DNA of 62,697 nt, counting the filler, from Dugesia japonica (lineage: Eukaryota): assembly GCA_001938525.1 (NCBI GenBank). It is 5 parts of 5 records of this genome, joined end to end, with 100 filler letters (N's around TTAATTAATTAA, not from the genome) between each part and the next. Parts side by side here need not be neighbours in the genome. Positions count along the whole stretch, not along the records: positions 10,028 to 22,487 come from MQRL01636972.1; 4 more parts are not named here. One strand, 5' to 3'. Numbering within the stretch: position 1 is the first letter of the stretch; every line of letters begins with the position of its first letter. The notes beneath the pieces were generated by a model. That model saw only the letters and a program-made list of their open reading frames with translations. It did no database searches and had not been told where the DNA came from. This document shows, one piece after another, positions 16,561-19,298 of the stretch. Position numbers and translations under genes: made by a program.

Positions 16561-17353
16561 GACCATTGCCAATTTATGAGAGTACTATTATCAATAACTA
16601 ATTTTATCATTAATTAGAAAATAATTATTATTATCTCATTGAATTTGATTTTGATTATGAACCCTTTTACTAATATGATCATCATCAGTGTCTTTAGCAT
16701 TCGTATATTCCGTGGTGTAAATCATGAGTCCTATATGATGGTCAACGTCAGGACGGAAATATGCTATCATTAGGATTATGGGAATAAGAGTGGTAGTAGT
16801 GTGTAAATTGGCATTTACCATATTTTTACGGCTAACCCCTGTACTTGGTAGTGTCCTTATACTTAGTATTCGTACTACTGTTATCAGCATTTATATTATT
16901 TTTTATTTGTCACTAATATTCGTAACTTTATTATTATTATTACCAACATTTATATTATTTTTATGATTGCTAATCTTAATGTCCTCATCATTATTATTAA
17001 TATTCGTACCACTGTTGTCTGCATTTATATTGCTATTACTAGGTTTGGTGTCATTAATATCACTAATTTTATTATTCTTACTACTACTAGCAACTTTCAT
17101 GCAATGGTTATCATTATTATTATTATTATTATTCTTAGTGTGGTTATTTAGTTTCATATTATCAGGACCATTAATTATCATTGGTTCTGCAATTATTATC
17201 GTTTGCCATCATAGGTTATAAGTAAGAATCAATACCCATAATGCATTGCTGACGTTGGACATAATATAACATCACCCTGATCTCGTAGACCCATCCTAGC
17301 CTACCAAGTAGTATGTTAACCTTAATAAGTTTCTAAAGATTATTTTCAGGCAA

Positions 17354-17512
17354 ATGTCTAAGATTATGAAAGACACCTTGAATTTTATACAACGAAAAAG
17401 GAAGCGAGCACGCAAAAAACAGTTGATCGGTCATCTGCTTTTTCCTGATATCATCCTCCATCCCGATGAATTGGATCTACAATGCTTTAAGGAGCTGTAT
17501 CCCCTTCCCTGA
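17354..17512 (+). CDS. Cassette A micro-protein (52 aa)
   Basis: MSKIMKDTLNFIQRKRKRARKKQLIGHLLFPDIILHPDELDLQCFKELYPLP*. Acceptor TTTCAG ends at 17349; AATAAA at 17562. Confidence 0.65.
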   Translation: MSKIMKDTLNFIQRKRKRARKKQLIGHLLFPDIILHPDELDLQCFKELYPLP

Positions 17513-17727
17513 GAAGTTGATTTAGATTGAATCATAAAATGATGTCATTTGTGTTTTATTCAATAAAAAATTTTCTCGTGATTAAGTAGTTGCCATGATG
17601 GAGTTCCTTTCCGTATTACAATAAATGTCTACCTCTGAGATATAGCACATTTTGACCAACGTCAAACATTTTATTGCATATAATTAAAATTTTTCGTTTA
17701 TATAACTAATTTTCTTCATAAATTTAG

Positions 17728-18147
17728 TGAACTTTAAGTGGGAGATGCTATTAGACTGTAGTACCGGTAGGCTGATCTTTAAACGATACAAAAACTTATA
17801 CAATAGAGATATTGCAGTTCTTGTAGACCGCTCCAAAAATTGAGGAGGAAAATGATGAAAGGCATTAGGACGCCACCGAGTGCCAAGCCTATTATGATTG
17901 GACCGGCCCCAACCGAGCCCACAAAACTTACCATACCACTACAACGGATCATTCGGTGAAAAATGCAGATTTTCGTACCACTAGTGAGTGGCGGGAAGAC
18001 TCTTCCGTCATTCCAATTACTACAACTCATCTGCCTTCCTTCGCAGGGTTAAGCAAATTTATAAGTAATACGCTATGGGATGTCAGGAATATGGAAAGCG
18101 GTGATAGCTCAGAGAATGTCGACTCCTCTGCTCATAATGAAAATTAA
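17728..18147 (+). pseudogene. Cassette B protein, frameshifted
   Basis: NFKWEMLLDCSTGRLIFKRYKNLYNRDIAVLVDRS...HLPSFAGLSKFISNTLWDVRNM aligns with ORF 56844-57248. Confidence 0.65.
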
Positions 18148-18385
18148 GTATAATTGATGTTTTTCAATGACAATCTTCTTTTATTTGATGTTAATAAACC
18201 ATCTTAATGATTAATTGAGGGTTCATCTTCTTCTTTTATTGTTTATTAGATGCTAGTCAAAGCAACTGAGCTATTTGCTAGTCATATATCTGTTTTTGAC
18301 CCCTTGTATTAGATTTCATTTAAATCCTATTATTTATTTATAGTTCTATTGGATAAAGGCAATATTAAACTAATATCTTTTTGTA

Positions 18386-18724
18386 ATGCACTCATCACTC
18401 AATCGCCCTGTTGCACCAACGAAAAAAGTAAGGGAAAGTAGCGAAGATATAGATATGATGTGAGACGTATATAGATTGGCCAAACGTCACTGGGAGGCTG
18501 ATACAGCTGCAGTCGAAAGTAAGGTAAAAAGATACAAAAATAAATGCATCGCGTTTCGTAAAAAAGCCGAAGCCTCCCATGCACAGGAACGACTTTGGAA
18601 AAGTCAATTAGAATCATTTACAGAGATCGTCCGGTCCCTCCATGACCGCGAGAATAATATCCTCGAATTAAGGAGAAGAATGCCTTTAGAGCCGTTGATG
18701 ACTGTTAAATCTTCGCGTCCTTAA
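18386..18724 (+). pseudogene. Cassette D coiled-coil protein (one in-frame stop)
   Basis: MHSSLNRP...YRLAKRHWEADTAAVESKVKRYKNKC...EIVRSLHDRE; homologues at 42133 and 49007. Confidence 0.62.
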
Positions 18725-18871
18725 CCTGACTTAATATCCTTTTTAATGTAAATAAATTGTTCTTTTATAATGAATCTTTTGTGTTTGTTTACTCCGGTGA
18801 ATTTTCACCTATTATTTACCTAAATTAAAAATTAATGTAATATTATTTCTCGATTAATTATTTCGTTACAG

Positions 18872-19298
18872 TGCCTAGAATTCGTCTCCCTACAGGTCTT
18901 CGCCGTTTTCACTGGCTTATCCAGAAACTGAGCGCCATATCAAACGTCAGAACGAACGAGCGCTTCTACGTCACCTCACCCAGTGCAACAGATTAATTAA
19001 TAAATTAGATATCATCGTTAAAAAACAAGGCGAGTTGGTGACACATGCCAAACAAATACTTACCCACAAAATCGAATTCCTTCAACAATGCATTGCTGAT
19101 TTGGCCAACCGCCTTAAACAGCAAACTTGGACTCGCTGGAAAAGTGAGGAGAACGAGGCCGCCTTTAATTTTATGTCTGGAGAGTCTACCCAGTGGTTAG
19201 ACCCGGGTGCTCTAAATTACATGATGTTAATAGAGAAAAATAAAACNNNNNNNNNNNNNNNNNNNNNNNNNNNNNNNNNNNNAACAAGGGGAAAATAA
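18872..19298 (+). CDS. Cassette E, predicted helical/coiled-coil ORF of unknown function
   Basis: Acceptor ACAG|TG at 18871. The long frame YPETERHIKRQNERALLRHLTQCNRLINKLDIIVKKQGELVTHAKQ... needs a frameshift or a second acceptor at 18895. AATAAA at about 19336. Confidence 0.45.

Follow-up and report, generated by a model that had tools for sequence, protein, structure and literature searches.

In the genome of the planarian Dugesia japonica, two families of small genes (cassettes B and D) embedded in an LTR-like repeat mostly begin with AG|TG rather than with an intact start codon. The reading that we favour, to which a probability of roughly 0.55 can be assigned, is that an upstream leader exon, joined by splicing, supplies the A completing the A|UG of both families, and that the cassettes would represent alternative last exons of one LTR transcript.

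The window, i.e., the whole stretch of DNA under analysis (62,697 nucleotides), is composed of five scaffolds with a GC content of 21-36%, and contains 100-nt N pads around a six-frame stop linker at 9928, 22488, 32058 and 42339, so that distances across the pads are meaningless. It harbors the host genes SNX3, myosin and EXD2 as well as transposon debris; no tRNA genes were found in it.

The LTR-like repeat and its cassettes

Copy 1 of the repeat has the following structure:

14834..19471, plus strand: solo-LTR-like element of 4,638 bp, including a 36-N gap, with TGTTG...CAACA ends
14830..14833, plus strand: left copy of a 4-bp target-site duplication
19472..19475, plus strand: right copy of the same duplication
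15634..15640, plus strand: TATA-like box (putative promoter), aligned in copies 1, 2 and 4 (3/4), 610-800 nt from the element start

The 5-bp inverted ends of copy 1, at 14834 and 19471, are of the TG...CA type, and the string formed by ends plus duplication is unique within the window. A target duplication was found for one of the eight element starts, the other seven being cut, nested or unfinished. The 18-nt start motif beginning with TG occurs eight times in the 62.7 kb, as in a multi-copy, dispersed repeat, and decayed relatives of the element are present on four of the five scaffolds. Contig depth drops from 2752 to 105 at 19500, i.e., at the right edge of the element; when summed, it amounts to 36-1732 for the cassettes, compared with about 10 for SNX3, a measure that is not a copy number. 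In copies 1, 2 and 4 (with the element starts of copies 2 and 4 at 13237 and 59477, respectively), a shared 5' region, the aligned TATA box and then cassettes A and B come after the start motif, in the same orientation. Delimited by the two ends of copy 1, A, B, D and E all lie within a repeat that resembles a solo LTR. A reading of the cassettes as antisense genes located upstream of a 3' LTR was rejected: the start motif precedes them on their own strand in copies 1, 2 and 4, and the two ends of copy 1 enclose them.

Neither a gag-pol body nor a primer-binding site tying the repeat to a full element was found in the window, and no G-rich purine tract was seen by eye before any of the eight starts. 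The 18-nt start motif had no match among viral contigs; ten metagenome loci carrying it (GC 35-67%) have no similarity to the cassettes and were taken as chance. Other copies carry, within their ATT-rich region, head-to-head insertions of two element starts, at 41054 (minus strand) and 50677 (plus strand), a case of nesting in AT-rich tracts. Transposon fragments (gypsy gag/RT, zinc-knuckle gag, a Penelope-like RT recognized by eye, and hAT transposases) lie at 557-2040, 27610-30300, 30773-30898, 55704-56237, 61103-61623 and 62291-62436. The last exon and 3' flank of an EXD2-like host gene (34092-36712, plus strand) recur with 100% identity at 37073 and 38200, beside N gaps; this repeat is probably an assembly duplication.

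The cassettes, arranged as A-B-D-E in copy 1, were compared within the window only (self-comparison), yielding four copies of A, four of B and five of D:

17354..17512, plus strand: cassette A, copy 1; own ATG, 52 codons, with a basic stretch and an HPDExDLxC motif
10233..10415, minus strand: cassette A, copy 2 (element start 13237); open over 60 codons
41485..41641, plus strand: cassette A, copy 3, preceded by a candidate intron of 41 nt that follows ACCAA; A is broken, its ATG being out of the conserved-core frame
57368..57559, minus strand: cassette A, copy 4 (element start 59477); has its own ATG and internal stops, A-ending donors being absent over 90 nt
17728..18147, plus strand: cassette B, copy 1 (B1); begins AG|TG, broken by a stop and a frame change
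10028..10066, minus strand: cassette B, copy 2 (B2); an intact ATG comes 8 nt after the acceptor; truncated where the scaffold ends
41730..41985, plus strand: cassette B, copy 3; start eroded, both AG and TG being absent from the aligned position
56844..57247, minus strand: cassette B, copy 4 (B4); begins AG|TG and is open to its end (one N)
18386..18724, plus strand: cassette D, copy 1 (D1); own in-frame ATG, one internal stop
42133..42338, plus strand: cassette D, copy 3 (D3); AG|TG directly after an in-frame stop, broken
43772..43978, plus strand: cassette D, 3' part only; start not alignable and left out of the count
48721..49007, minus strand: cassette D (D5); begins AG|TG, 95 codons in a single frame that an internal stop interrupts once
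51442..51503, minus strand: cassette D, 5' part (D6), absent from the original prediction; AG|TG, with a second AG 2 nt upstream that makes the acceptor ambiguous
18872..19246, plus strand: cassette E, single copy in the window; strong acceptor, then TG out of frame with a 122-codon ORF

Over six non-overlapping cassette pairs, identity reaches 238/370 at codon positions 1 and 2 vs. 70/185 (38%) at position 3 (p = 5e-9), the segments having been taken from BLAST hits, a choice that favours the coding result. Considering all 12 cassette pairs, 83 of the 160 identical residues are encoded by different codons. This pattern shows that A, B and D were formerly under selection as proteins; most copies are now broken. 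With their 50-140 codons the cassettes match no Pfam family above the cut-off, the matches being weak and of coiled-coil type. The other searches gave no relatives either: B copy 4 and E had no matches among two candidates each, D copy 1 had none among 1.84 billion protein representatives, the Atlas search with E and B gave no usable match, PHROGs gave 0/6, and the PDB search with the A alignment returned a single match (E = 0.94).

The separate cassette that the original prediction placed between B and D (17869-18147) was rejected, being the 3' part of B. Other small ORFs accompany the elements. A further small family, with both members broken (40% identity over 58 codons), follows D in place of E at 48395-48562 (minus strand) and 44058-44231 (plus strand). 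A coiled-coil-like ORF that is open over about 125 codons and starts AG|ATG (46539-46916, minus strand), downstream of the element starts 47782 and 48300, is possibly another cassette type. Upstream of A in copy 4, a 135-codon ORF (58064-58471, minus strand) is perhaps the first cassette of the array; it has a faint match (E = 0.02) upstream of A in copy 1, at about 16011-16130 (plus strand). Lastly, two 112-codon ORFs at 39299-39982 (minus strand), downstream of the element start 41054 and unlike A-E, are perhaps the array of another subfamily.

The start codons of B and D

The original prediction quoted 11 strings, all of which are present where it had placed them, those at 10066, 49007, 49248 and 57247 being on the minus strand. 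The B copies at 17728 and 57247 do begin TTTAG|TG, and the codon so interrupted is exactly the one that reads ATG in the paralogue at 10066; a shared Trp follows four codons later. Homology alignment likewise bears out AG|TG for the D copies at 42133 and 49007, and adds a third one at 51503. Three further examples did not hold in the same way. At 18386, which is possibly a damaged AG|TG, this reading is not needed, since a plain in-frame ATG, four codons upstream of the place aligning with the other D starts, opens a single frame with one internal stop. At 49248, the proposed AG|TG module has a stop as the codon after xTG and no homology to any cassette was found. In E, AG|TG is indeed present at 18872, while its role as a start did not stand, the xTG frame being of 41 codons and different from that of the 122-codon ORF.

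The starts of B and D were anchored by homology and not by the motif, and eight copies with an alignable start were counted, leaving out 43772, 49248, E (which has no homologue to anchor its start) and a D-like match at 30875, dropped before counting, that sits in a hAT transposase fragment. AG|TG occurs in five of these eight copies; two have their own ATG, which in one of them occupies exactly that codon, and the start of the remaining copy is eroded. B accounts for two AG|TG, one ATG at the same codon and one eroded start, the last belonging to a copy (at about 41730) that the original prediction had omitted; among the four alignable D copies, three have AG|TG and one its own ATG. When the bases following acceptor-like AGs were tabulated, TG was found after 24/333 sites in the window (7%) vs. 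5/8 starts of B and D (p ~1e-4). This enrichment agrees with the original prediction; the p-value obtained here is overstated because the eight copies are related, representing two gene families and not independent events.

It might be argued that AG|TG arose by accident once in the ancestor of each cassette and was passed on to the relatives without having any role, the examples having been picked by eye among decayed repeats. Two of the seven AG|TG or TG examples originally listed fail and one is a plain ATG, the copies are broken and nearly silent, and TG was not significantly enriched when acceptor-like sites that precede GC-richer DNA were scanned without regard to the motif (5/34 vs. 16/261, p = 0.08). 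On the other hand, an in-frame stop lies 0-10 codons upstream of AG|TG in B1, B4, D3 and D5, with no ATG between, and the conserved N-terminus of these copies therefore has no start of its own if AG|TG is set aside; moreover, a neutral 4-mer should not last in five copies, since third codon positions are only 38% identical between them. An accident of this kind is thus quite improbable.

If the AG is used as an acceptor, its G is removed with the intron, so that the first base of the codon comes from the upstream exon. The AG is preceded by an AG-free run of 28 to more than 80 nt in B1, B4, D3 and E (37-42 nt at host acceptors); another AG lies 10 nt upstream in D5 and 2 nt upstream in D6. The array as a whole looks built for splicing, because an acceptor-like AG is located 3-9 nt before the ATG in all A copies and in B2. 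These same features speak against unspliced messages in which GTG itself is the start codon, reached from a weak promoter in front of each cassette or by re-initiation, and in which the preceding A belongs to an AT-rich spacer. The genomic text can be read in frame as GTG at all five sites, as such a reading requires; yet the AG-free, T-rich runs stop exactly at the AG of AG|TG, GUG starts are inefficient in animals, and we regard this explanation as very improbable.

The paralogue has ATG at the codon in question and TG is kept while third positions are only 38% identical, so that the missing base would most simply be the A of a Met codon. Alternatively, the acceptors might be real and the upstream exon might end in G, or be a short coding exon with its own AUG, the junction codon being then GUG (Val, or a near-cognate start) or an internal Met; the product would resemble an env of the ZAM or Beagle type, which carries a short peptide added from upstream. 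In favour of this alternative, the consensus for the last base of exons is G. A Val codon, however, would vary at its third base, GTG accounting for 10 of the 43 Val codons of the cassettes (one 36-codon stretch being counted off-frame), and the paralogue has its ATG at the same codon without any upstream peptide. More generally, G is the third base in 57/244 NTN codons of the cassettes, and for an ordinary N|TN codon the odds of TG being retained at each of the five sites are roughly 0.003. The fixed TG thus appears to fit a split Met codon better than Val. Short-peptide leaders are on record for the ZAM and Beagle env genes (PMC12992720, in excerpt).

The proposed upstream leader and the expression of the cassettes

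17308..17349, plus strand: candidate 42-nt intron joining an A-ending leader to cassette A, with an alternative donor at 17311; host introns measure 44-47 nt

The original prediction placed A-ending donors shortly upstream of A. This is borne out for copies 1 and 3, where ACCAA|GTA lies 42 and 41 nt, respectively, before the A acceptor, and does not extend to copy 4, in which none of the four GT sites follows an A. The 8-mer ACCAA|GTA occurs six times on both strands of the window. Taken together, an A-ending donor is seen in three of the four copies, as in copy 2 all four GT sites located 30-90 nt upstream follow an A, with spacings of 49-71 nt. An A before a donor is ordinary here (270/785 GTA-type sites, and all three RNA-confirmed host donors); an A-ending leader would therefore be easy to obtain, and this frequency is no evidence for the proposed one. 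That the donor 41-42 nt before A is the donor of the shared leader can be put forward tentatively, with the odds somewhat against it.

As for a coding upstream exon in phase 1, which would contradict the original prediction, the frame before the donors of copies 1 and 3 meets a stop within seven codons and has no Met, and none of the donors near A in copies 1-3 has an open phase-1 frame with a Met. In favour of a coding or G-ending exon, an in-frame Met lies upstream of the two weak G-ending donors of copy 4, and the true donor may be yet another one, six other donor-like sites being listed between the TATA box and A. Considering both sides, an exon of either kind is rather unlikely, although it deserves serious attention.

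A leader might also be added in trans, the cassettes forming an operon resolved by spliced-leader trans-splicing. In some other animals, the spliced leader ends in AG, which would yield GUG here. Tightly packed small genes, each behind an acceptor, would suit such an operon, and flatworms do trans-splice; their spliced leaders end in ATG (PMC12582326, in excerpt). In agreement with the original prediction, which had discarded trans-splicing, the frame opened by a leader-terminal AUG closes at once at four of six sites and after 15 and 19 codons at the others, making this origin exceedingly improbable.

Returning to a leader spliced in cis and ending in A, the proposed course of events would be as follows. 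From an LTR promoter (the TATA box near 15634), one primary transcript would be produced; its non-coding leader, ending in A, would be spliced to A, B, D or E, the AGs before the cassettes serving as acceptors. A would bring its own ATG, B and D would in most lineages gain A|UG at the junction, and each mRNA would be polyadenylated after its cassette. In this way, one promoter might serve several accessory proteins, one per mRNA, as in complex retroviruses, and the split codon might block initiation at B and D on RNAs not spliced to them. This would apply to the family when active, the copies of the window being decayed and nearly silent. Among the observations that weigh against it, copy 4 has AG|TG at B and yet no A-ending donor near A, and the statistics are derived from two gene families only.

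Of the original claim that a shared A-ending leader supplies the first base, what stands is that B and D would need a 5' exon, with A as the simplest base; the junction itself, the donor beside A as that of the shared leader, and the membership of E and 49248 are predictions. The accompanying statement that only the cassette chosen by splicing is translatable was overstated, given that an own ATG is found in all four A copies, in one B and in one D. As B2 and D1 illustrate, a lineage can pass from one kind of start, split or intact, to the other, and the array does not depend on the split.

Reads from four of 24 runs, three of them RNA runs (6-25% of each, 85% likeness), were compared with the region 15000-22480 only. 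The control was an expressed SNX3-like host gene (21449-22250, plus strand, with introns of 44-47 nt): the runs represent the host, because reads match this gene mostly at ≥95% identity and splice its GT..AG introns of 44, 45 and 47 nt. Mean depth over 17250-19249 was 0-1.5 vs. 62-276 on SNX3 in the three RNA runs, and was zero in the bin of the B acceptor of copy 1. No junction at the cassette acceptors was present among the 15 joints listed (there are 56 more), reads being few there. Copy 1 and its close relatives are nearly silent in the runs sampled, and the junction is neither supported nor refuted by them. In Schmidtea mediterranea, knockdown of smedwi-2, which relieves PIWI silencing, raises the expression of LTR elements (PMC8532177).

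AATAAA is common inside the element. It lies within 90 nt after the stop at seven of ten cassette ends vs. 27-28% of GC-matched windows (p ~0.006); against the most AT-rich windows (46%), the excess is not significant (p = 0.11). Poly(A) signals after the cassette stops would fit alternative last exons, and are also compatible with the separate transcripts expected if GTG were the start of unspliced messages.

Related systems and biological meaning

The closest parallel is the env gene of the springer subclade of Drosophila errantiviruses, whose start codon AU|G is completed by splicing to a non-coding leader (PMC12992720; bioRxiv 10.1101/2023.08.03.551782; both in excerpt). In both cases a gene of an LTR retroelement has its start codon finished by splicing to a non-coding leader, here as a prediction. 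In springer, as far as the same excerpts describe it, the split is AU|G and is limited to env, a single gene located close to the 3' end, its position having been mapped by RT-PCR, whereas in the cassettes an A|UG split is predicted from DNA, for at least two small genes of an LTR-internal array beside intact-ATG genes. The hallmarks of env (signal peptide, furin site, TM) were not found in the cassettes, which have 50-140 codons and no Pfam family above the cut-off; the cassette system would work like springer env but is not a member, there being no env.

Burro/GYPSM1, the giant Ty3/gypsy elements of planarians, exceed 30 kb in total, with an internal part of up to 25 kb, accessory ORFs and thousands of copies (PMC6431247, in excerpt). 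Compared by description only, they share with the present repeat the implied long LTRs, the accessory ORFs and the AT-rich host; they differ in that their description mentions polyprotein domains and accessory ORFs but no array of spliced micro-genes within the LTR, and no 4,900-aa gag-env-pol polyprotein of the Burro type lies beside the cassettes in the window. In the Drosophila MDG1 group (PMC11952523, in excerpt), gypsy-type elements likewise have small accessory ORFs, sORF1 and sORF2, at their 5' end, and sORF1 is followed by a poly(A) site; according to that text, their RNAs are unspliced and the ORFs have their own starts.

The published texts searched contained no report of an array of spliced micro-genes within the LTR of a flatworm element (subscription papers and Repbase entries being outside the scope) nor of an A|UG split common to an LTR-internal array (Repbase and supplements being outside the scope), and the excerpts of PMC13524379, PMC11410931 and PMC13097621 hold nothing on split starts in LTR-internal arrays.

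Complex retroviruses offer a similar layout, in that several acceptors are used with a single promoter and a single leader donor, and some ORFs lie in the LTR, as in HIV tat/rev/nef and MMTV sag. There, the acceptors precede intact start codons, whereas that of the cassettes would be split. Cassette A also has, by eye, an arginine-rich stretch like that of Rev/Rex-type proteins.

A splice-made AUG is therefore already known in LTR retroelements (springer-clade env); what would be new here, as far as the published texts searched go, is A|UG across at least two small LTR-internal genes. If this is true, the split start codon would act as a general switch for a whole array of accessory genes and not for env alone. 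ORF finders requiring an ATG would miss B and D, and the cassette proteins have no relatives in the databases searched. It is conceivable, although we would not count on it, that the LTR is a self-contained multi-gene unit, with one leader exon, at least four alternative last exons bearing their own poly(A) signals, and an A|UG split such that the choice of splice site alone licenses translation. With the array kept inside the LTR, solo LTRs would remain small gene clusters; if the LTR is such a unit, every solo LTR would retain it, scattering lineage-specific regulators through the host genome.
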